Shown: positions 2 to 18,597, counted from the first letter of the stretch. The stretch is DNA of 23,287 nt from Promethearchaeota archaeon (GCA_048938005.1 JBHLMQ010000048.1:1-23287); one strand, 5' to 3'. Program-made: numbers and translations. The notes: a model not told the origin generated them from the sequence alone.

Positions 2-1255
2 CCACGTATGTTTAGAGATTTTCCTGAAATGATGAAGGAACTAACTCCTGATATGTGTCCCTCAATGAGAGCTGGAACAGCTTCACGAAATTATTTTATA
101 AATAAAGATGACATTGTAGCAGGTTATATTATGGCGCGACCTACGGAATCTGTCTCATATGAACCTGCAAAATCATGGATTACTATGAATGTATATCGTA
201 GTGAGTTTGACCCATGGATTGCTAAATTTGCGACTGAAGCTGGTGCTGAATTAAAGACTTCTACATTAATTGTGGATCTATTGAAGGAAGATGGCAAAGT
301 GTGTGGTGTGATTGATGAAAAAGGAGAGAAATTTGGTGCTCCTCTTGTTATTGGTGCAGATGGAGTCATATCAACTGTAGCACAAAAATCTGGATTAAGA
401 ACAAAATGGCCACAAAATCAAGTTACATTAGTACCACAATATGATTTTCATGCACCTTCAGAAAAAATTGATGATATTATGGGTGATGAGACATTAGGTA
501 TATGGTGGGGATCAACCTTTCCAGCATCATATCAAGTTTTTTTTAATGATGGTTTTCATCAAGGATTAGGCAATTGGATGAATTGGTGGGATAAAAATCC
601 ATTATATTATTTAAATCGTGTTGTAAATCTCAAATATTATCAAAGATTGTTAAAAATACTGGATGCTAAACCACGTGAGCTTCAAGCGCACCTACTTCCT
701 TGGTTAGATTATCCTAATAATACTCATACCGATGGAGTTATATTAATCGGAGACGCTGGTGGATTTCCATGTCCACTTGAAGCAGAAGGAATATATCCTG
801 CTATGGTAACAGGAAAAATAGCAGCAGAGGTAGCTTCTGACTTAATAACTTCTGGAGATATGTCAAAGGCAAATCTTAAAAAATTTGATGAAAAATGGCA
901 AAAAACTAGTATTGGAAAAGAGTTTGAGGCTGGTTTTGAGTTATGGAATATATGGAAAGCTTTGCCATTTAGCCCAAAAGAAACTATGTCTTGGTTTGTA
1001 CCAATGATAATGGAAATCATTGGAGGAATATTCGATTGGTCGCAACCTCATGCTTTAAGAGTGCGTCAAATTATTGGGCACATAAGATCATATATGCCTA
1101 AAGCAACGCCATTTATAATGGTATACGTGATTCCTTTATTGACCAAGGTTTTTGAAGATGATTTAGATAAATTAATTGATCCTAAGAAGATTATGAAAGT
1201 TTTACCTAAAATTTTGGATTTACTACCACAGAAAAAGAAGAAGAGAGGTGTTTAA
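2..1255 (+). CDS. FAD-dependent oxidoreductase, FixC/geranylgeranyl reductase family (5' partial)
   Basis: Frame is open from position 2. The N-terminal GxGxxG FAD motif is missing, so the gene starts upstream of the window. Motifs VYRSEFDPW, IGADG and IGDAGG..PLEAEGI are present, and a FixX-like ferredoxin follows directly. Confidence 0.8.
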   Translation, partial: PRMFRDFPEMMKELTPDMCPSMRAGTASRNYFINKDDIVAGYIMARPTESVSYEPAKSWITMNVYRSEFDPWIAKFATEAGAELKTSTLIVDLLKEDGKVCGVIDEKGEKFGAPLVIGADGVISTVAQKSGLRTKWPQNQVTLVPQYDFHAPSEKIDDIMGDETLGIWWGSTFPASYQVFFNDGFHQGLGNWMNWWDKNPLYYLNRVVNLKYYQRLLKILDAKPRELQAHLLPWLDYPNNTHTDGVILIGDAGGFPCPLEAEGIYPAMVTGKIAAEVASDLITSGDMSKANLKKFDEKWQKTSIGKEFEAGFELWNIWKALPFSPKETMSWFVPMIMEIIGGIFDWSQPHALRVRQIIGHIRSYMPKATPFIMVYVIPLLTKVFEDDLDKLIDPKKIMKVLPKILDLLPQKKKKRGV

Positions 1256-7554: not shown

Positions 7555-8229
7555 TTATTTAAAATTATTAATGCTTATTCTTTTCTTTTGAGTAATTAAG
7601 CAATAGAAGTAATAGATTGAAATAAATAATTCTGGCAACCAATTTTTAAGTAGTATAAAAACGAATAAAGCTGCGATTATAGCAGATAAAAAGAATAAAG
7701 ATTCATGAATGAATTCAAATGGAATTCCTTTAAAATTAAAATATAATAAAAATAAAATTCGAAAAATGTTTAATATGTGAATAACTCCAACTGTAACAAT
7801 TAAGGTTTTTATTTTTCTCCATATAAAATTATTCTTACTCGAGAGATCTTTTGAAGAAGGTATGAATAATATTATACCAATCAAAATGCTAAAAATATGA
7901 GCTGCTAAGCAATTTGGAGTGATAGAAAATGTTCCCTCAAAGGGGTGGTTAGGTATCATAATTGTAGGAAATATATTGTGATCAGGATAGATAATCACTG
8001 TTGAATTCATATTAAAGATAGAATTTAAAAGAAAGGATATCTGTATAGATGTGAATTCATATATCCAGTAATTAATTTTAAGACTTAAAACTAAATAGAT
8101 CAAAATAGATAATAATGGACTGCCAATTATTAAACTCAAAATTTGAAGATTAGAAAATTTATAAGCTTTGCCATTAAGGTTTAGAATTGGTCTATGAAGG
8201 TTAAAATTTTCATTTTGATTTTCTTTCAT
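7555..8229 (-). CDS. Exosortase/archaeosortase family membrane transpeptidase
   Basis: Polytopic membrane protein with ITPN-C107, LNIF-R157 and FI-H175, matching the Cys/Arg/His catalytic pattern and spacing of exosortases/archaeosortases. Adjacent to a gene with an IPGF-TM-basic tail. Confidence 0.8.
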   Translation of the reverse strand: MKENQNENFNLHRPILNLNGKAYKFSNLQILSLIIGSPLLSILIYLVLSLKINYWIYEFTSIQISFLLNSIFNMNSTVIIYPDHNIFPTIMIPNHPFEGTFSITPNCLAAHIFSILIGIILFIPSSKDLSSKNNFIWRKIKTLIVTVGVIHILNIFRILFLLYFNFKGIPFEFIHESLFFLSAIIAALFVFILLKNWLPELFISIYYFYCLITQKKRISINNFK

Positions 8230-8299
8230 TTTGGAGTAATATGTAACTTTTTTTATTTAGGTAAAATATAATAAAAAAAAAATTAAATTTTCTCCATTT

Positions 8300-8944
8300 T
8301 TAGTTCTTTTTTGCATTTAAATGATATTTATATATAATAATTATTGAAAGTACCATGAATAAGCCAATAAATAAGAACGGCTCAAAGCCGGGTATTTCAA
8401 TATTTTCGAATAGCGCTGTAAAAAAGCTATTTATTGCATTGGATATTGCTTGCCCTATTGCTGTAAAAATTGCTCCAACTATTGGAGCTAGTGCAAAAAT
8501 AATCCAAACAGGTATAGCGATTCCTACTAGTATAATAGCAACTGCAAAAGCACCACAATATCCTATTCCTTCTATCGCATCAGCTCCACCAATTGAGTAT
8601 GCTCCCCAAAATATACCAACCATGAGCATTGAGAGTAAAAACATTCCACCAAAAATTGGAAAATAGCTGTCAGGAGTAAGAGCAAATCCTATCATAACTA
8701 TATATGATAAAATAAAATTAACAAAAGCCACAATACCAAAGAATATTAATATTTTGTATGGAAATGTTATTTTTTTTTTTAATTTTTTTGGTGGTGTGAT
8801 AGAAGTTATATCACTTATTTTTCCAGTATCTGGGGTATATTCTTGAGTTGGTACCGCAATCAAAGCTCCACAATCAATACAATATTTACTATCTTTTTTA
8901 TTTGGCTTACCACAATTATTACATATTATCTCGTCTTCAGACAT
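8300..8944 (-). CDS. Zn-ribbon membrane protein with IPGF (Loki-CTERM/PGF-CTERM-like) sorting tail
   Basis: N-terminal CNNCG...CIDCG, about three hydrophobic segments, and C-terminus EIPGFEPFLFIGLFMVLSIIIIYKYHLNAKKN (IPGF at 8384-8395). Confidence 0.75.
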   Translation of the reverse strand: MSEDEIICNNCGKPNKKDSKYCIDCGALIAVPTQEYTPDTGKISDITSITPPKKLKKKITFPYKILIFFGIVAFVNFILSYIVMIGFALTPDSYFPIFGGMFLLSMLMVGIFWGAYSIGGADAIEGIGYCGAFAVAIILVGIAIPVWIIFALAPIVGAIFTAIGQAISNAINSFFTALFENIEIPGFEPFLFIGLFMVLSIIIIYKYHLNAKKN

Positions 8945-9152
8945 AAATTATCACAACAATTTATTTTTTTAAATTAATTGGAATTTCATTTTACTTTAAT
9001 TCAAGAATAAAACAATCTTTATTAATCCATACAAATATAAAAATATTTATGATAGAATCCAAAAATTCGAGATTTTTTTTTTTGAAATTGGTAGATGTAA
9101 ATCTTAAATTCTTAATATTTCTTATAGAATAAGATTAGGGTGAAATCAATTA

Positions 9153-9569
9153 ATGTATAATAAACAGGAATACAAGTTTTTAGTGAGATTATTTGTTTTA
9201 ATGTTTTTGATATCATTAATACTATTTATAATTAATCTGATACTAATCCTATGGATAAATAAATCAATTTTTTTAAATGAAATGGTTTATTTAGGATTAT
9301 CCATAATTTTATTCGGATTTGAAATTATTAGAATAGGGATAATATTCATATCAGGAATCATCATATTGAGATTTGAGGCAATTAATAGAAATTATAAAAT
9401 CATTATAATAAGCATCTTGTTTATAGCATTCTTTTTCAATACACTTTTTTTAATCCGGTTATTTGGATTTGCTTGTTTTACTCCAATATATAGTTTTTTA
9501 TGCACACCATTTATTTTTATCTCATTTGTATTAATTATCATAAAAAAACATGATAATAATCGGATTTAA
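9153..9569 (+). CDS. Hypothetical 4-TM membrane protein
   Basis: 138-aa hydrophobic ORF with an upstream GGGTGA SD-like motif. Its stop abuts the stop of the convergent gene at 9570. Confidence 0.6.
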   Translation: MYNKQEYKFLVRLFVLMFLISLILFIINLILILWINKSIFLNEMVYLGLSIILFGFEIIRIGIIFISGIIILRFEAINRNYKIIIISILFIAFFFNTLFLIRLFGFACFTPIYSFLCTPFIFISFVLIIIKKHDNNRI

Positions 9570-10520
9570 TCAAAAAAAGAGAGCCAATTCTAAAATTATT
9601 AGCCAAATTAACCCCCAAATAACAAAAACAGAGAAATATATTAAAGATGCAATTTTATTTTTTGCTTTTTCATTCTTAATATTCGTAAGAATGAATAATA
9701 TTATAACACCAATGAACATCAGATGAGCAGGTTGAATTAGACGCCAAATTATTAAAAAGAAGGTTAGAATAGGGAGTCCTGATGTTGTATCTGCACTGCG
9801 AAACCAATTAGAGATCATCGATAATAAATATTCTGGAAAAATAAAATAAGGAATACAGATTAATCCAAAGGGTAAAAAATAATAAATTAAATCTTTCCCC
9901 TTAATCTTTTTAATGATGATTAAGATAAATGGAATAGCAATTAAAATTATTTTAAATGTGCAAAGAGTAAAAAAGATTCCAGATAAAAGCTTTTTGTCTT
10001 TTTCTAATTGAATATATGATTCAAATAAAAGTAATTGAATTATCCAATTGTTATTATTTAAATACATATCAGCGAGATATCCAATTCCAGAAAAAACAAA
10101 GAAAAAAAGGAGATCTTTTCTACTTTTAACTAACTTTTTGATCTTAATTGCTATGTATATTGTAGAAATGAATCTTAATAGATCCCAGAGATATACTGAA
10201 ATTTCCAATGGTATAATGTAAAAAGGATAAAAGATAAAATACCAGAAGTATAGATATATCGCTTTTTCATTTACCAGAGGATTATCTTCATAATACTGAA
10301 TAATTCCGTTATGCATTAAATCGTAATTGGTTTTAAAGTTTAGGTCTCGATTTCTCATTAACAAATCAATAATTAATAATCCTGATGAATCTTCTTGGAA
10401 GAAGTAAAAGATAATCCTAAGAATAATTAAAATAGTAGTTATCATGATGATTATAAGAATATAGATCAAAAGATATGACTCTCTCTCTTCTTTAACAAAA
10501 GTCAATTCATTTGATTTCAT
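9570..10520 (-). CDS. GT87/DUF2029-like GT-C glycosyltransferase (lipid-phosphate-sugar dependent)
   Basis: Multi-TM protein with RD-x-x-F after TM1, YLYFWYFIFYPF..IP.....LW, D...NN-N-WII and G.....FK, matching the GT87 motif layout. Confidence 0.6.
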   Translation of the reverse strand: MKSNELTFVKEERESYLLIYILIIIMITTILIILRIIFYFFQEDSSGLLIIDLLMRNRDLNFKTNYDLMHNGIIQYYEDNPLVNEKAIYLYFWYFIFYPFYIIPLEISVYLWDLLRFISTIYIAIKIKKLVKSRKDLLFFFVFSGIGYLADMYLNNNNWIIQLLLFESYIQLEKDKKLLSGIFFTLCTFKIILIAIPFILIIIKKIKGKDLIYYFLPFGLICIPYFIFPEYLLSMISNWFRSADTTSGLPILTFFLIIWRLIQPAHLMFIGVIILFILTNIKNEKAKNKIASLIYFSVFVIWGLIWLIILELALFF

Positions 10521-10565
10521 GATTAACTTTCAAATCATTTGTAATTAATATATAGCCTTTAAACT

Positions 10566-11000
10566 TTATTCAATAATCTGTTTATTTTTTCTAAAATAAT
10601 ACTTTTTAATTTCATACCTCAGGATACAATAAATTAAAATTGATGCTAAAAAGTAGATACAAATAGGAATTGTATAATAAATATCAATTAATACCAAAAT
10701 TACTAATCTCAATGCAACAATGAAATTAATAATGACTGACACAAAAACCAATAAAAACGTCAAACTTTTTGAGATAGATTCATCATTTTTCTTAGACGCA
10801 TGATATATATCAAGAGCATATTTAAAAATTAAAACAGCTAAACTCCAAAAGAAAAATGGTAAAATCACTTGACTATCTGCAAAACTAATGAACAAAATTA
10901 GAATCCAACATAACAAATAACTTATTGAGATTGAAAATAATGAATAATAAACTTCCTTTTTTCGCTGAATTATTCTTATTATTAACTTATTAGAACTCAT
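10566..11000 (-). CDS. Hypothetical 4-TM membrane protein
   Basis: 144-aa hydrophobic ORF, co-oriented and 30 bp downstream of the GGR gene. Confidence 0.6.
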   Translation of the reverse strand: MSSNKLIIRIIQRKKEVYYSLFSISISYLLCWILILFISFADSQVILPFFFWSLAVLIFKYALDIYHASKKNDESISKSLTFLLVFVSVIINFIVALRLVILVLIDIYYTIPICIYFLASILIYCILRYEIKKYYFRKNKQIIE

Positions 11001-11030
11001 TATTGGAATTATTTTACTTTAAATTATTAA

Positions 11031-12200
11031 TTAATCATTAATTTTTGCCAAAAAATCCTTTGAAGGAATTTCTCCGTATGTAAACATGTTAACTACCTGC
11101 TCTCTAAACAACAAATCTTTTTCAGATAAGCTAAGCATTTTATTAAGATTTCTACCTTTATTTTCATAGAAGAATTTAATCATTGACCGTTTCAATTTGA
11201 AATTCCTAATGATATTTTTGATCTCAGAGTTAGATCTATACTTTTTTAAAATATTTTTTGAATAATCTTCTTCTTGTAATGCTTCTATAGCGGTTGTCCC
11301 TGCAACTTTACCAGATGCCACAGATGTTTGAATTCCTTCACCACTTATAGGAGAAACAAATCCCCCTGCATCTCCTATCAACATTAAATTATCATCATAT
11401 AAACTTCTTTCCAATACTCCTTCTGCGGGAAAAGAATATAAACCTGTCCATATAGTTTTATAGTTTGAACCTGGAATATATTTTTTAACATTAGGATTAT
11501 CAAAAAACTCTTGATAAATTTTATGTAAGTTATATTTAATGTTATCTTTGCCAAATGAAAATACGCCAATATTGAATCTTTTTCTGCCTAAGGGAAATAT
11601 CCATCCATATCCCTGATATGGCTTAAAATATACGTATACAAATTCTTCATCTAAATTATTATTTCCTTCCATAATTGCACATTTGCCAATTGCTAGTTCA
11701 CTAATTTTCCATTTTGATCTTATCCCTGATCTTAGAGCTAATTTAGAACTCATACCATCAGCAACTATAATTATATTTCCGTAATACTCCTTGATACCAG
11801 TAGGAGATTTCGTTTTTATACCAATTTTTTTCTGATTTTTTGTTATAAAATCAATAGATAAATTTTTATCAAAAAGCTCTGCTCCAGCTAAAACAGCAGC
11901 ATCTCTCATTAAATTATCAAGCTCTAATCTATCCATAATTATTGAATATTCTTTACCTGCTCCTTTAAATTCTAATTTATGATAATCCGCTGAATGCATA
12001 ACAACGCCTAAAACTTTTGGTATATCTAATTTTTTCAACTGTGGATACAGATCCAACACACTGGAATGAACGGCTCCTCCACATGGTTTTCGCCAATTTG
12101 TATTTTTTTCAATTAAAGCAACTTTATATCCTGCTTTAGCTAAGACTTCAGCACATTGCGATCCTGAAGGTCCAGCACCTGAGATTAGAATATCATACAT
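11031..12200 (-). CDS. Geranylgeranyl reductase family flavoprotein (DGGGPL reductase-like)
   Basis: Motifs GAGPSG, KPCGG, DR..LD, VADG, YGWIFP and GDAGGFVSPISGEGI. ATG at 12200 preferred over TTG at 12206. Confidence 0.9.
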   Translation of the reverse strand: MYDILISGAGPSGSQCAEVLAKAGYKVALIEKNTNWRKPCGGAVHSSVLDLYPQLKKLDIPKVLGVVMHSADYHKLEFKGAGKEYSIIMDRLELDNLMRDAAVLAGAELFDKNLSIDFITKNQKKIGIKTKSPTGIKEYYGNIIIVADGMSSKLALRSGIRSKWKISELAIGKCAIMEGNNNLDEEFVYVYFKPYQGYGWIFPLGRKRFNIGVFSFGKDNIKYNLHKIYQEFFDNPNVKKYIPGSNYKTIWTGLYSFPAEGVLERSLYDDNLMLIGDAGGFVSPISGEGIQTSVASGKVAGTTAIEALQEEDYSKNILKKYRSNSEIKNIIRNFKLKRSMIKFFYENKGRNLNKMLSLSEKDLLFREQVVNMFTYGEIPSKDFLAKIND

Positions 12201-12376
12201 GAACAAAACCTTTAAATAAATAACTCATACTTTCTTCAAATTATGGTTAGATATTTAATAAATTTCTGGTTAAACACAAATTTTAGTATAAGACTTTTAT
12301 ATTATAGACTGAAAGTGCATTTTTTTTATAATTCTTATAGCTTTTATTAAAAAATAGAGTTTGTTGTAAATATACT

Positions 12377-12976
12377 ATGGATTATGTAAAAATAGATAAG
12401 AAAAAAATCTTCATTGATAGTGGTCATTTATATTTGGAAAGCTTTAATATAAACAAAATCAGCGAAATAAAAAGATTGAAACATTATGATAATTTAGGTG
12501 CTCTCTATTTGGAAAAAAATAAAATTACTGAAATTGAGGGTTTAGAACATCTTATTAACTTGAAGAAACTCCATTTAGAAGCTAATCTAATAACAGGTAT
12601 TAAAGGATTGGATTCTCTTACTAAGCTAGAAGAATTAGAATTAAGAGGAAACCAAATTTCAAATATTACAGGATTGGAAAAACTTACTAATCTAAGAAAA
12701 TTAGAATTGAGTAATAACAGGATAAAAAAGATTGAAGGGTTAGAAAATTTAGTTAATCTTGAGTATTTAGACTTAAGCCATAACCAAATAGTAGAAATTC
12801 GAGGATTAGATAATTTAAAAAAAATAAAGGTTCTTGATCTCAGTAATAATCCCATTTCAAAAATCCAAGGACTCGAGAATCTTGATAATTTGCATCAGAT
12901 AAGTCTAAATGGAACCAAAATCACCCAAAAACCAAATTTAGATTACCTTACCAAATTAGAAAATGTCTATTTATAG
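12377..12976 (+). CDS. Leucine-rich repeat protein (SDS22-like, 22-aa repeats)
   Basis: About 7-8 tandem LxxLxxLxxLxLxxNxIxxIxG units. Confidence 0.92.
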   Translation: MDYVKIDKKKIFIDSGHLYLESFNINKISEIKRLKHYDNLGALYLEKNKITEIEGLEHLINLKKLHLEANLITGIKGLDSLTKLEELELRGNQISNITGLEKLTNLRKLELSNNRIKKIEGLENLVNLEYLDLSHNQIVEIRGLDNLKKIKVLDLSNNPISKIQGLENLDNLHQISLNGTKITQKPNLDYLTKLENVYL

Positions 12977-13065: not shown

Positions 13066-14088
13066 ATGGAAAAAGGCAAAAAAATAGTTATTGCATTTAA
13101 TTTTGAGTTAGGCAAAATTTTCAATGTTTTAGACGGTTTACCTGATAATTTTCAAAATTACACATGGGTATGTACAATCTGTAAAAAGTCACTTTTTTTT
13201 AATCAAAACTTAGGTTATTTCTTGCACAAGGGTAATAGGAGTTATTGCTTTGAGCCAGAAACAATAGAACATAAGGTTATGAAAGCATATTGGTATGTGA
13301 TGTTTCCAAAATTCAATCCAGTTTCTATGAAAAAGTTGGAATATAAGATAGGAGATCAAATAGCTGATATGTATTTTATATTGCGAGATGGAAAGAAGGT
13401 AGTTATTGAGTGTCAAAACTCACAAATAAGCAGAAGTAAATTAATAGAACGAACAAAAAACTATACAAAGAAAAATATTTATGTACTATGGATATTCAAT
13501 GGGCATGGAAAATGCGTATCTAACGAAAAAAATCCAAAGAATGAAGATGAGGTAGGAGTATTAGGGATGGAAAAGAAAGCACATTCTTTGTATGGTGGTC
13601 GGGTTTATTATATGAATGTATCAGGGAGGAAAATAATTGATCCACCATATGCCCTTCATTTTACCCCTTTCTTTAAATATAAAAACTCAGAATTTAATTA
13701 TTTAGGGTATAATAAATATTATAAGGATAAAAGGAGTATTACTCTTGGTAAAATTCCCAGCTATAAAATACTGTGTCTAGAAAACAAGGGCTATAAATTA
13801 GCACAATTAACAGATAAACATGTGAGCACCTTATGCGTAGAAAAAATAATCAGTAGTATTAAAGAGGTTTGTAAAAAAAACCTATTAAAAGGAAAAACTA
13901 TTGATGATTTGATTGAAATACCTTTAAATTCAATTATTTTAGAGGTCAAAAATCGATATGGTTTTTATCTACCACATTTGTTGTTAAAGAAATCAAAAAA
14001 AATTAAAAAAGTGAAAATTGAAAAACTTTTGGATGAAAAATATAACATACACTATATAATTACGTTTCGGATTTCTGATTATCTTTAA
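13066..14088 (+). CDS. CoiA-like PD-(D/E)xK-family nuclease
   Basis: Motifs CTIC...H...C..E...H, IAD, IECQNS.IS, RT..Y and VLWI, following the CoiA pattern. Confidence 0.7.
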   Translation: MEKGKKIVIAFNFELGKIFNVLDGLPDNFQNYTWVCTICKKSLFFNQNLGYFLHKGNRSYCFEPETIEHKVMKAYWYVMFPKFNPVSMKKLEYKIGDQIADMYFILRDGKKVVIECQNSQISRSKLIERTKNYTKKNIYVLWIFNGHGKCVSNEKNPKNEDEVGVLGMEKKAHSLYGGRVYYMNVSGRKIIDPPYALHFTPFFKYKNSEFNYLGYNKYYKDKRSITLGKIPSYKILCLENKGYKLAQLTDKHVSTLCVEKIISSIKEVCKKNLLKGKTIDDLIEIPLNSIILEVKNRYGFYLPHLLLKKSKKIKKVKIEKLLDEKYNIHYIITFRISDYL

Positions 14089-15786: not shown

Positions 15787-18597
15787 TTATTTTTTTCGGC
15801 GTTTTTTTTGTAATATAATGGTGGTTAAACTAAATATCCCTAATAAAATTAATATATCGTATCCAGGAATTTCTGGAGGGAATTCCCCCTCTCCTTTATC
15901 TTCATATGCCCAGGCGAATACTCCAGCAAGAGGACCGGTAACATTGAATACTATTGTAATAGAATTAGCCCCTACGTTGTATGAAACGGATTCATTCATT
16001 TTTTCTACGGGCATACCTTCCCAATATCCATACATACCGCCATATTCCGTATTATTAATCCATGTATAGAGAATTAAATCTAATGTGGCCACAGGGAGAT
16101 AGAGAGGTAATACTACTGTCATTTCAATCTGATCTACTATTGAGTGATTTGTTACCATGATATCGCTGTAGAATAATAAAGTTCCATTAGGTACTTCTTC
16201 ATGTACAGGAGATTCAGGTAGAATAGCAAAAAGGAAATCTGCACCACCACTGGAGGTTGTGATATTTGCTGAGAATGCAAAATCAGGTAATAAATCAGAT
16301 TGTAATATTAATGGATTAGATCCAAATGAGAGAGGGGCACCTATTTTATAGTAAGAGCTGAAAAAATGAGACCACATCATACCTCTCATATATAAGGGAA
16401 CTCCGAGAGGTACATCAAGGTACAATTTAGAAAAATCACCACTTGAATAATTATATGCCTCAACTCTATCAAATGATAGATATACATCTTCCCACATAAA
16501 CGATAGTTCATCAAAATCAAATCCCGTAGTTCCCATTGGATATAATAAAGGAGGACCTTGTGTTCCTGCCATCATATAATATGGTGCCATTGCCCAATAA
16601 TTATTTGCCGCGGCGATAAGAATGTATGTATTAGATAAAATCCACATCTCCATCGTCATATTCCAATAATAGAGATCAGCATAAACCTCCGAAAAAACTT
16701 GGGAACCTTCATAGAATCCACCCGTTAATTCAGATAAATCTACTAAAACTTCTTTAATTTCAGTTATTATTGCCTTTAATTCAAATCCATTTGATCCATA
16801 ATAAATTTCATCCGATACTCCATATGCCCATTTAGTATTACTGGTGGAATTTGCCCCAATTGTAAAAAGAGTCATCCCAGGATCGGGAATATCAATTGTT
16901 ATTACATCATTTGCCGTATCTATATTATAAAAGTTTTTGGGAGGGATTCCCCACATTTTAGCGGAATTATTATAACCTATTAGAAGTAGGTCGTTTTCAG
17001 TAATTCCAAAATTACTCAAAAATAACTCATCATATTCAATTGCTAAACTCATCGGTCCAATTCCAAGTGAATTATTTGTATATATGTCAAGATAAAAGCC
17101 AACTCCAGGTGGGAATGCGTTTGGAGCAGATACATTTATTGGATTTATTGGTAATAACGCCCAATATAATTCAATATCTCCTGAAATTGTAAAATTAACA
17201 AAAATATCCCAAGGTATAAACAAATCTGAGTAGAGATATTCCATAACAGCATTGCTCGTAAGGATTGTCATATTCTTTTCAAACATTATAAAACCATACT
17301 CATCAGGCTCACCATCTATATATCGAATTAACTTATTAACACCTGTTTCAAGGTTTGCAATACTTATAACATGATCGAAAGAGGTATAGTTCCACATTTC
17401 AAAATGCATGAATTTTCCCTCTTCTTTTATGTAAACCTCATCAAAGTTTACATATCTTCTACACGTAAAATTATTCTGCATAAATAGCATTTCCTCTATT
17501 GTTGCACTTTTATCAAATACAATAGGACTAGGTGGTGGGCTAACATCTGCTTGCCATGGTAAGGAAGGATATAAATTATTTGCTGCTCCTACAACTGCAT
17601 TTTCCATTTGAAATTCATAAATTTCCAATGTCGGATTCCATACTGATATATTCGCAAGTACTTGCTCAAAAGCCATTGGTCCTGTACCATAAGGATTATG
17701 ACTCCAATATCCCCAATAATTTGTAATATTAAATCCAGTGATTTTGATTTTTTTTTCTACAAATCCTTCAAAATAGTTGTTTTCACCAAAATAGATTGTG
17801 TCTCCTATGTTAACGCCCCATTCAACTTCATCAGTTATATCTGTATCAAAAACTCGATGTATTTTTTCATATTCATCAACCATATCTCCCCCAGAGCCCC
17901 ATTCTTGAGAAATGTAGTATTCAGCTTCTCTTATGGTCCCATTATCGAAATAAGTGGCATTAATGAAATACGGTTCACTACTGCTTCCAAAATGAAGATT
18001 TTTCTCGGAATTATCTGCATTATAATAATCAAATGAGTTTAGACGCCCTTCAGCAGCGAGAGGATCAAAGCAAGTTGTTAATATTATGTTTCCTAAATAG
18101 TTAAGATCTAAGGTTTTACTCGAACCGTTTAATGGTAAGATTAATGGTATATATCCATAAACACCACTATAATAAATTTCAGACATAATAGATGTATTAA
18201 ATCCAAAATGAGCAATTGGAGCTGGATCTCCAGTAGATTGTGGCATATCTGCAACAAGATCGTACCAAACACTAGTTCCATTGACTCTTGATAGATTAAA
18301 AGTTCCTAATCCAAAAATATCTACAAGTGTTGTGTCAAATCCAGTTATATTCAAGCCAAGACTGTTTTTAAACATATGTATGATTTCATTCGTCGTTGAG
18401 TTCTTATCAATAACTTCCAATTCAACCCATAGCGTATCTCCAGTAGTTACATTCCACACCCATGCATTATTTGGGTGTGGTTCTGGAACTGGCACATCTG
18501 CTTTTGTATTTGTAATCATTATATTAAAAAGCATTAATGTAGGAACAATAGCGAGAAGTATTACCAAAATTATACTCCTAATCTTAATTTTTTTCAT
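15787..18597 (-). CDS. Large secreted cell-surface glycoprotein with IPGY (Loki-CTERM-like) sorting tail; S-layer/adhesin candidate
   Basis: N-terminal signal peptide (MKKIKIR plus hydrophobic core, TKA/D), internal repeats and more than 25 N-x-S/T sequons by manual count. C-terminus EIPGYDILILLGIFSLTTIILQKKRRKK (IPGY at 15859-15870). Confidence 0.85.
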   Translation of the reverse strand: MKKIKIRSIILVILLAIVPTLMLFNIMITNTKADVPVPEPHPNNAWVWNVTTGDTLWVELEVIDKNSTTNEIIHMFKNSLGLNITGFDTTLVDIFGLGTFNLSRVNGTSVWYDLVADMPQSTGDPAPIAHFGFNTSIMSEIYYSGVYGYIPLILPLNGSSKTLDLNYLGNIILTTCFDPLAAEGRLNSFDYYNADNSEKNLHFGSSSEPYFINATYFDNGTIREAEYYISQEWGSGGDMVDEYEKIHRVFDTDITDEVEWGVNIGDTIYFGENNYFEGFVEKKIKITGFNITNYWGYWSHNPYGTGPMAFEQVLANISVWNPTLEIYEFQMENAVVGAANNLYPSLPWQADVSPPPSPIVFDKSATIEEMLFMQNNFTCRRYVNFDEVYIKEEGKFMHFEMWNYTSFDHVISIANLETGVNKLIRYIDGEPDEYGFIMFEKNMTILTSNAVMEYLYSDLFIPWDIFVNFTISGDIELYWALLPINPINVSAPNAFPPGVGFYLDIYTNNSLGIGPMSLAIEYDELFLSNFGITENDLLLIGYNNSAKMWGIPPKNFYNIDTANDVITIDIPDPGMTLFTIGANSTSNTKWAYGVSDEIYYGSNGFELKAIITEIKEVLVDLSELTGGFYEGSQVFSEVYADLYYWNMTMEMWILSNTYILIAAANNYWAMAPYYMMAGTQGPPLLYPMGTTGFDFDELSFMWEDVYLSFDRVEAYNYSSGDFSKLYLDVPLGVPLYMRGMMWSHFFSSYYKIGAPLSFGSNPLILQSDLLPDFAFSANITTSSGGADFLFAILPESPVHEEVPNGTLLFYSDIMVTNHSIVDQIEMTVVLPLYLPVATLDLILYTWINNTEYGGMYGYWEGMPVEKMNESVSYNVGANSITIVFNVTGPLAGVFAWAYEDKGEGEFPPEIPGYDILILLGIFSLTTIILQKKRRKK

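Follow-up and report, generated by a model that had tools for sequence, protein, structure and literature searches.

A predicted archaeosortase cassette with a private target and a GT87-type glycosyltransferase in one family of Loki-type Asgard archaea

Gene content of the locus

The window analyzed here is the whole of contig C84 (23,287 bases) of the 3.7-Mb, 95% complete genome of a Promethearchaeota archaeon (G000). Positions 7555-11000 of this window encode an archaeosortase, an adjoining protein with an IPGF-type C-terminal tail, a GT87-like glycosyltransferase and two orphan membrane proteins, p138 and p144 (Table 1). We consider it rather likely that these genes form a self-contained five-gene accessory membrane cassette in one family of Loki-type Asgard archaea, and that this cassette is a dedicated archaeosortase system. 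An earlier note made from the sequence alone had described a minus-strand block in the order geranylgeranyl reductase (GGR), four-helix membrane protein, GT87-like protein, IPGF-tailed protein and archaeosortase, and this order was confirmed by listing the open reading frames (ORFs). The small plus-strand gene that the note took for a mere interruption, p138, is a conserved member of the cassette; it is convergent with the GT87 gene, with a 0-bp gap, and divergent from the gene for the tailed protein. As read from the ORFs of the window, GrpE, DnaK and DnaJ are encoded downstream of the block, and, upstream of it, a leucine-rich-repeat (LRR) protein and another whose nuclease domain is CoiA-like.

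Table 1. Features of the cassette and of the adjoining GGR gene, with positions counted from the first base of the window (aa, amino acids)
Feature	Position	Strand	Description
Archaeosortase	7555-8229	-	224 aa; divergent ArtH-like paralogue, predicted Cys transpeptidase of the cassette
IPGF-tailed protein (predicted substrate/target)	8300-8944	-	214 aa; zinc-ribbon polytopic membrane protein with PGFEP-type C-terminal sorting signal
Substrate tail E183-IPGFEP-FLFIGLF...Y-K-Y-H-L..KKN	8303-8398	-	motif, transmembrane helix, basic end
CxxC...CxxC zinc ribbon, predicted cytoplasmic N-terminus of substrate	8870-8923	-	from Pfam and conservation
p138	9153-9569	+	138 aa; orphan 4-helix membrane protein between the GT87 and IPGF-protein genes
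GT87-like	9570-10520	-	316 aa; compact, probable GT-C glycosyltransferase of the GT87 family, cassette-specific paralogue
p144	10566-11000	-	144 aa; orphan 4-helix membrane protein
GGR	11031-12206	-	391 aa; GGR-family flavoprotein, neighbor outside the cassette

The archaeosortase and its predicted target

The assignment of the first gene as an archaeosortase was borne out by the exosortase/archaeosortase superfamily model TIGR04178 (36.2 bits against a cut-off of 23; 38.7 bits in a six-frame search). Cys107, Arg157 and His175 are invariant in 23 sequences, true ArtH included, and catalytic roles for the Cys, Arg and His of exosortases and archaeosortases have been proposed (PMC1569441, PMC6098224; these and the other reports cited here are quoted from the portions of their text that were accessible). 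Against more specific models the protein remained under both the cut-off of the ArtH equivalog NF041736 (116.4 bits, cut-off 200) and that of TIGR04125, the model for ArtA of Haloferax volcanii (17.9 bits, cut-off 75).

The true ArtH of the same genome lies on contig C9 (51888-52799; L038:9389-10300, minus strand) and scores 322-323 bits on NF041736. Genes for TBP, a small GTPase and an MtrH-like protein surround it; it adjoins neither lipid nor glycan genes, nor GT87, p138 or p144. Superfamily, Cys/Arg/His residues and lineage are common to the two enzymes, but the window archaeosortase is only 33-37% identical to the ArtH of genus genomes, lacks the C-terminal extension of about 75 aa found in ArtH, and has one adjoining private target, whereas the targets of ArtH are many and scattered. 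Their distribution differs as well: an ArtH-type enzyme was detected in 40/41 relatives sampled, the window type in only about one sixth of the family genomes sampled. In a quick tree of archaeosortases the ArtH clade and the paralogue clade separated with an SH-aLRT value of 100.

The protein encoded directly upstream of the archaeosortase scored 25.8 bits against Pfam Zn_Ribbon_1 (cut-off 25). Its N-terminal Cys4 zinc ribbon is followed by a lysine-rich linker, by hydrophobic segments at about residues 59-91, 93-119 and 121-168, and by a C-terminal part consisting of an acidic loop with E183-I-P-G-F-E-P189, a last helix and Y-K-Y-H-L-N-A-K-K-N. The C-terminal sequence reads ...EIPGFEPFLFIGLFMVLSIIIIYKYHLNAKKN, and the tail ...ENIEIPGFEPFLFIGLFMVLSIIIIYKYHLNAKKN shows the three parts of a sorting signal, namely a motif, a hydrophobic helix and a basic end. 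Assuming four helices and the positive-inside rule, the PGF motif would be placed on the outer face. No signal peptide-like start is present, so that this is not a typical secreted sortase substrate. Among its orthologues C8, C11, C22, C25, E183 and P185-P189 are invariant, as is the motif E[IV]PGFEP, and the tail is the most conserved part of the protein. The family amounts to 42 clusters in a collection of 5.8 billion proteins, every named cluster being from Promethearchaeota, and the Cys4 ribbon is kept in 40/42, the other two being fragments.

With respect to the Loki-CTERM model NF033507, the isolated 45-aa tail reached 13.4 bits (E 0.075), under the cut-off of 19.9, and it was not among the 31 genome-wide matches recorded at E up to 1. 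Sixteen of these matches, all outside the cassette, pass the cut-off and follow the consensus xIPGY[DNSE]-helix-KK; in common with them the cassette tail has an IPG[FY] core, then a helix, then a basic terminus. Since enzyme and tail fall under the ArtH and Loki-CTERM cut-offs respectively, the window pair is, judged by these scores, an undescribed paralogous variant of ArtH/Loki-CTERM. The names ArtH and Loki-CTERM are known as curated NCBIfam models and neither was found in the literature searched; a search on Asgard archaeosortase systems and on archaeosortases with GT-C enzymes likewise found nothing on the five-gene cassette.

The earlier note had paired the archaeosortase with the tailed protein. 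In all 13 species-level loci retrieved with the archaeosortase as bait (Art-baited loci) the gene for this protein lies directly upstream, and [IVL]PGFEP is kept in 42/42 members of its family; it is therefore very probable that the 214-aa protein is the dedicated target of the window archaeosortase. Across the tree, a PGFEP-tailed neighbor was present within 1.5 kb of 27/29 paralogue-clade rows compared with 0/25 ArtH-clade rows, the two rows without one being at a contig end (L049) and on a short contig (L087). The count of 27/29 arises partly by construction, because many paralogue rows come from loci retrieved with the substrate as bait; fairer counts are the 13/13 Art-baited loci together with the distant paralogues of G181 and G191. 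Such distant members of the clade, 37-40% identical, adjoin PGFEP-tailed proteins at L088 (22-918 with 915-1691) and L089 (788-1318 with 1457-2383), and one of these tailed proteins carries a Kre9/KNH Ig-like domain.

A pseudogenized archaeosortase of the paralogue type, with one TAG and two TAA codons, was observed at L037:9635-10234 (G023:C7). Its neighbors are a repeat protein of 632 aa, which ends ...YYPGFPPYVILIV...KKLKRLKSKKN, and a protein of 179 aa whose end is likewise hydrophobic-basic. LRR genes flank the archaeosortase paralogue in G019 and G023 also.

The GT87-type glycosyltransferase

Against Pfam GT87/DUF2029 (PF09594) the window protein itself scored 23.9 bits, just under the cut-off of 25, but 36/40 aligned homologues match the family (best E 8.3e-13), and two stand-alone paralogues of the same genome, on C63 and C70 and 43-45% identical, score 43.2 and 50.1 bits. 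Membership of the window protein is thus argued through a chain of homologous relatives, and the GT87-like call of the earlier note stands. An Atlas model of the protein gave TM values of 0.62-0.65 by query to GT87 and MptA_B clusters, and a GT-C fold is probable.

Eight residues, D59, D113, R116, D151, N155, N156, N158 and K190, are invariant in 40/40 homologues. The window protein keeps these eight plus N238 and Q263, that is, all the family-invariant polar residues, which argues that it is probably an active enzyme. For the same reason an inactive GT87 resembling PIGU was considered less likely. At residues 59-61 (window 10338-10346) all 18 cassette-clade alignment rows carry Asn61, mostly as D59-L-N61 and as D-S-N in P0055, whereas the 22 rows of housekeeping GT87 paralogues carry [KR]-D-x-D instead. 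This replacement may mark a change of metal or substrate use.

The GT87 enzyme PimE, for comparison, uses polyprenyl-phosphate mannose on the outer face and acts on lipid-linked glycans; its catalytic D58 is located on a juxtamembrane helix, while K195 occupies the phosphate site (PMC12041525). The window protein resembles PimE, MptA and MptB in the Pfam GT87 membership of its family and in the fold matches to the GT87 and MptA_B clusters. Its D59 follows the first helix or hydrophobic segment and its K190 is invariant, a likeness to PimE D58 and K195 that was drawn without an alignment. It differs from PimE, MptA and MptB in being archaeal and far shorter, in having no sequence match to a solved structure, and in that the cassette clade has Asn in place of the second Asp of its D-x-D-like motif.

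The orphan proteins p138 and p144

Neither p138 nor p144 belongs to a Pfam or NCBIfam family; 13 orthologues of p138 and 11 of p144 gave only single weak Pfam matches. A profile of p138 found 16 representatives among 1.84 billion proteins, all of similar size save one 75-aa fragment, and E57, R102, G105, C108, F109, P111, S114 and F115 are invariant among p138 proteins. For p144 the Atlas search returned nothing over 0.9. The two proteins are unrelated to each other (hhalign probability 1.7%). A probable partner of the sortase is p144. For p138 a partnership with GT87 may be guessed at, on gene adjacency only.

Co-inheritance, synteny and selection

Co-inheritance was assessed by a phylogenetic profile over 135 genomes of the family, of which 22 carry the GT87 orthologue and exactly the same 22 carry p144; p138 occurs in 21 of these (besides 3 matches that are fragments or of another kind), the target in 23, and the archaeosortase at 53% identity or more in 21, with 2 additional partial copies. 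All five genes were found in 20 genomes, on one contig in 19 and split over two contig ends in G019, and three further genomes (G201, G263 and G260) hold 4, 3 and 2 of the five genes beside contig ends. Outside the family the target was detected in the one genome sampled of family f3 (1/1) and in 0/264 genomes of the other phylum families sampled.

The loci themselves gave the same picture. Beside the target, the 13 Art-baited loci contained p138 in 12, GT87 in 11 and p144 in 10; four of the misses are at contig ends, and in L052 GT87 and p144 went unseen, beyond unrelated sequence. The five-gene core is complete in 10 of these loci and cut in 1; intact ORFs for each of the five genes were seen in 10 loci and also in the window. 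In 25 metagenome loci retrieved with the substrate as bait, some of whose contigs duplicate genome loci, the archaeosortase was present in 21, p138 in 20, GT87 in 19 and p144 in 16, the gaps being nearly all at contig ends. The genes occur in three orders: p144, GT87, p138 on the opposite strand, target, archaeosortase; GT87, p138, target, archaeosortase, p144; and target, archaeosortase, p144, GT87. In the second and third of these the stop of the archaeosortase gene either overlaps the p144 start, by 4-20 bp, or is 1 bp away from it. The cassette is also found in at least two other chromosomal contexts, the GrpE/GGR/CoiA surroundings being replaced elsewhere by Fpg-like and enolase-superfamily neighbors, as identified by reading ORF translations. 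All five genes are under purifying selection, with median dN/dS values of 0.20-0.40 (p138, 0.40; p144, 0.35) over 15 pairs, figures which are rough with dS near saturation.

The five-gene arrangement is far beyond chance. The earlier note had made its interpretation depend on conservation of the neighborhood in related genomes; this conservation holds for the core, and GT87 in particular is linked to the archaeosortase by strict synteny that resists rearrangement. It is conceivable that the genes are merely neighbors in a variable region with no shared function, as the place among GrpE, GGR and CoiA which the cassette occupies is subject to rearrangement. This is, however, hardly credible given that the same five genes stand together in 20/135 family genomes, that the GT87 orthologue and p144 occur in no other sampled genome, contig-end cases aside, and that the gene set persists through three orders and at least two other contexts; chance adjacency was rejected as contradicted by the co-occurrence data. 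We regard GT87, p138 and p144 as probably coupled in function.

Variations on the locus were noted in several relatives. In G183 (L090, C176:24500-29400) the target-archaeosortase pair is duplicated in tandem inside one cassette, with four target-like matches in all, and G248 (C214:7910-9643) has two tandem target copies. A contig of Promethearchaeota CR_4 (L036/L052:1-1200) has unrelated sequence upstream of p138, at the place expected for GT87. Its ORFs overlap in several frames and look richer in Gly, Arg and Ala, and the record is partly masked; this may be an insertion or an assembly join. A conserved polytopic membrane protein of about 258 aa (...LSDAIPNLFVPAG...) recurs a few kb from the cassette, at varying positions, in several loci (L034:4825-5601, L035:14210-14983, L042:6119-6892, L048:6251-7027, L049:2310-3095 and L051:6502-7299). 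No counterpart of it was seen in the window, and queries with the window genes matched none of these ORFs.

The neighboring GGR gene

The GGR family call of the earlier note was upheld by TIGR02032 (181.7 bits, cut-off 158.8). The protein passes no lipid-reductase equivalog; against that for digeranylgeranylglycerophospholipid reductase (NF041080, DGGGPL) it reached 107.9 bits, under the cut-off of 580. Three further GGR-like regions, at 25-28% identity, are present in the genome (window 197-928, C97 and C23). The first of these falls within a second FAD-binding GGR-like paralogue at window 8-1255 on the plus strand, 25% identical to the 391-aa GGR, and relatives show a GGR-like match of similar identity beyond their TFIIB-DnaJ-DnaK-GrpE block.

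The same note had counted GGR as a member of the block, and this part of it was not sustained. At least eight cassette-less genomes of the genus carry orthologues that are 70-82% identical to it (G004, G022, G010, G016, G006, G013, G007, G009 and G012). In three of these, G022, G006 and G016, GGR adjoins GrpE, with DnaJ-DnaK beyond in G022 and G016; CoiA lies on the other side of GGR in G022 and G006, and the G016 contig ends after GGR. In the window the cassette is inserted between GrpE and GGR, while in G003 it is placed between GGR and CoiA, where a 32-codon N-terminal remnant of GGR remains. At three other loci (G005, L046 and L047) the cassette is present with CoiA abutting p144 and no GGR. 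Membership of GGR in the cassette was therefore rejected: it is a resident backbone gene outside the system.

These data bear on the interpretation that the earlier note had placed on the locus, in which GGR, GT87 and the archaeosortase would form a pathway resembling glycosylphosphatidylinositol (GPI) anchoring, making a saturated glycolipid and attaching it to IPG[FY] proteins in general once these are cleaved. The gene order in the window, with only 30 bp between GGR and p144, is consistent with such a pathway, as are the presence of GGR beside the cassette in the window, G019, L045, L053, L058 and L059, its presence on the other side of the cassette in L044 and L061, and the action of GT87 enzymes such as PimE on phosphatidylinositol glycolipids (PMC12041525). 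The phylogenetic profile nevertheless contradicts the GGR part, since the orthologues occur in cassette-less genomes, there in the backbone order DnaJ-DnaK-GrpE-GGR; G005 has the cassette with only a 58% GGR homologue, on another contig, and GGR is shown in only 3/25 substrate-baited loci. As to the remainder, the 16 bulk Loki-CTERM tails go with the universal ArtH on C9, which has no glycan or lipid neighbors, and the cassette has one private target and no general set of substrates. Taken together, a general pathway of this kind is very improbable, and the tempting but wrong inference from an adjoining lipid reductase is corrected: it belongs to the backbone, not to a pathway.

Proposed mechanism and alternatives

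We propose that the ArtH-like paralogue acts as a polytopic Cys/Arg/His transpeptidase which would recognize the private E[IV]PGFEP-helix-YxYH-basic tail of the target encoded upstream. The enzyme would cut the tail at PGF, on the outer membrane face, through a thioacyl intermediate at Cys107 by analogy with ArtA (PMC6098224, PMC7157517) and with the sortase logic of EpsH (PMC1569441), and the new C-terminus would then be handed to a nucleophile, as in sortases and ArtA. On the same face the GT87-type GT-C enzyme would use a polyprenyl-phosphate sugar donor, and would most likely build or modify a lipid-linked glycan that is either joined to the processed protein or acts together with it. That PimE acts on lipid-linked glycans, and that no N-X-S/T sequon was found in the 60 residues before PGF in any of 40 members of the target family, suggest a GT87-made lipid-linked glycan as acceptor or working partner. 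The data above show which genes are present, the families to which they belong, the conservation of catalytic residues, the co-inheritance and the purifying selection; the cleavage, the topology, the donor type and any covalent link we infer. Covalent transfer of the processed protein onto a GT87-made glycolipid or glycan is put forward only tentatively, as a step that we hold to be doubtful.

A number of observations weigh against the proposed mechanism. The window GT87 protein misses the Pfam cut-off, its fold evidence comes from an Atlas model with a pTM of 0.69, and a profile of the 40 GT87 homologues gave 0 matches to PDB sequences at E up to 10. The tail helix and YxYH of the target are conserved far beyond the needs of a disposable signal, which could mean stable binding instead of cleavage. 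Being polytopic, the target would be kept in the membrane without an anchor of the GPI type, and attachment of a lipid or glycan has no obvious anchoring purpose. At L071 no match to p138 or GT87 was found in the 990 bp upstream, and L082 has an odd gene order. Pairwise-distance correlations among the genes (r 0.78-0.96) were calculated with shared species history uncontrolled. Longer or fused forms of the archaeosortase were searched for and none found, itself weak evidence. Finally, beside the archaeosortase-PGFEP pairs of L088 and L089 no GT87, p138 or p144 is in view, and the sortase thus does not need GT87 in principle. The PGFEP signal tracks the whole paralogue clade; the GT-C partners track the zinc-ribbon target only.

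This last distribution, together with a target that would stay in the membrane after cleavage, also suits an account in which the zinc-ribbon protein, p138 and p144 serve GT87 as subunits or regulators and the sortase trims the helix to activate or assemble the complex, with or without addition of a plain lipid as for ArtA and with no protein-glycan bond. Small partners stabilize some GT-C enzymes. The unusually conserved tail helix and YxYH suggest specific helix-helix contacts, and the retained polar residues of GT87 point to an enzyme that is probably active. Maturation of this type is nonetheless rather unlikely, as the GT87 paralogues on C63 and C70 stand alone and do without partners of this kind, and a dedicated transpeptidase would be an elaborate route for the mere removal of a helix.

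GT-C enzymes include protein glycosyltransferases, and GT87 might on that account O-glycosylate directly an outer segment of the zinc-ribbon protein, or of another surface protein, while the archaeosortase acts independently on the tail. A candidate site is the near-invariant Ser168 within AIS[ND]A, a conserved amphipathic segment of the target predicted to lie outside. The absence of sequons speaks here against N-glycosylation only. PimE, on the other hand, acts on a lipid-linked glycan and not on protein (PMC12041525), and we consider direct O-glycosylation quite improbable.

Comparison with known systems

Archaeosortases lipid-anchor surface proteins in haloarchaea. The cassette resembles the ArtA/PGF-CTERM system of Haloferax volcanii in its PGF-type tripartite tail, in which archaeosortase cleavage is followed by covalent attachment; in the cassette the cleavage is predicted and the attachment would be a more doubtful step. 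ArtA substrates are secreted via Sec or Tat, whereas the cassette target is polytopic with a zinc ribbon that is predicted to be cytoplasmic, and the neighbors in the cassette are a GT-C enzyme and two orphans instead of lipid head-group enzymes. The value of such neighbors is illustrated by the artA-pssA-pssD neighborhood in Methanosarcina, which pointed to acceptor-making enzymes (PMC7157517, PMC6098224), and adjacency of artA to pssA/pssD correctly predicted the lipid pathway of Haloferax (PMC7157517). The PS-decarboxylase family PF02666, searched with this one model, had no match in the 95% complete genome G000, compared with matches in 7/14 control genomes, and the archaetidylethanolamine (amine-lipid acceptor) route proposed for Haloferax ArtA may for this reason not apply in the present lineage.

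The homologous transpeptidases of the PEP-CTERM/exosortase (EpsH) system are habitually encoded among glycan-biosynthesis genes, 90% of EpsH exosortases being near exopolysaccharide genes (PMC1569441). The EpsH loci are large, with many cytoplasmic GT-A/GT-B enzymes, exporters and many PEP-CTERM proteins, in contrast to the five genes of the cassette with one target and a single GT-C enzyme predicted to act at the outer face.

The GPI transamidase of eukaryotes combines the protease PIGK with the lipid-binding subunit PIGU and the partners GPAA1, PIGT and PIGS, and the GPI lipid contains GlcN-inositol and is bridged by ethanolamine phosphate. An analogy is invited by the position of a Cys transpeptidase next to a protein of the GT87/PIGU fold, and the cassette might be a non-homologous archaeal counterpart of this complex: the archaeosortase would cleave the PGFEP tail and transfer the new C-terminus to a glycolipid which the GT87/PIGU-fold enzyme, aided by p138 and p144, would make or display on the outer leaflet. 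We judge this reading, taken whole, unlikely. The cassette has no counterparts of GPAA1, PIGT or PIGS, its GT87 looks active whereas PIGU is a non-enzyme, and no relation of archaeosortases to PIGK is stated in the literature consulted, the likeness being by analogy only. A literature search on archaeal GPI-like lipids found nothing. Two deacetylases of the PIG-L family score over the cut-off in the genome, on C45 and C59, and are not linked to the cassette. Were this reading true, the product would be a conjugate of protein and glycolipid in an organism closely related to the ancestor of eukaryotes, and in the Asgard setting any coupling of protein to glycolipid would have implications for how eukaryotic GPI anchoring arose. 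With one sortase, one substrate and one glycosyltransferase predicted to work at the outer face, the cassette is in addition a small, portable system for the question of the acceptor.

Other features of the window

PADLOC gave 0 matches for 8 proteins and thus no sign of a known defense system. A sigma-70 promoter scan performed no better than shuffled sequences, the scan model being one that does not cover archaeal promoters. The region is flanked on the plus strand by the 199-aa LRR protein (12377-12976) and the 340-aa protein with the CoiA-like nuclease domain (13066-14088). On the minus strand, positions 15787-18597 encode a 936-aa ORF with no Pfam domain and the best Loki-CTERM tail genome-wide (36.8 bits; ...PPEIPGYDILILLGIFSLTTIILQKKRRKK), probably a large surface protein that is handled by the housekeeping ArtH on C9.

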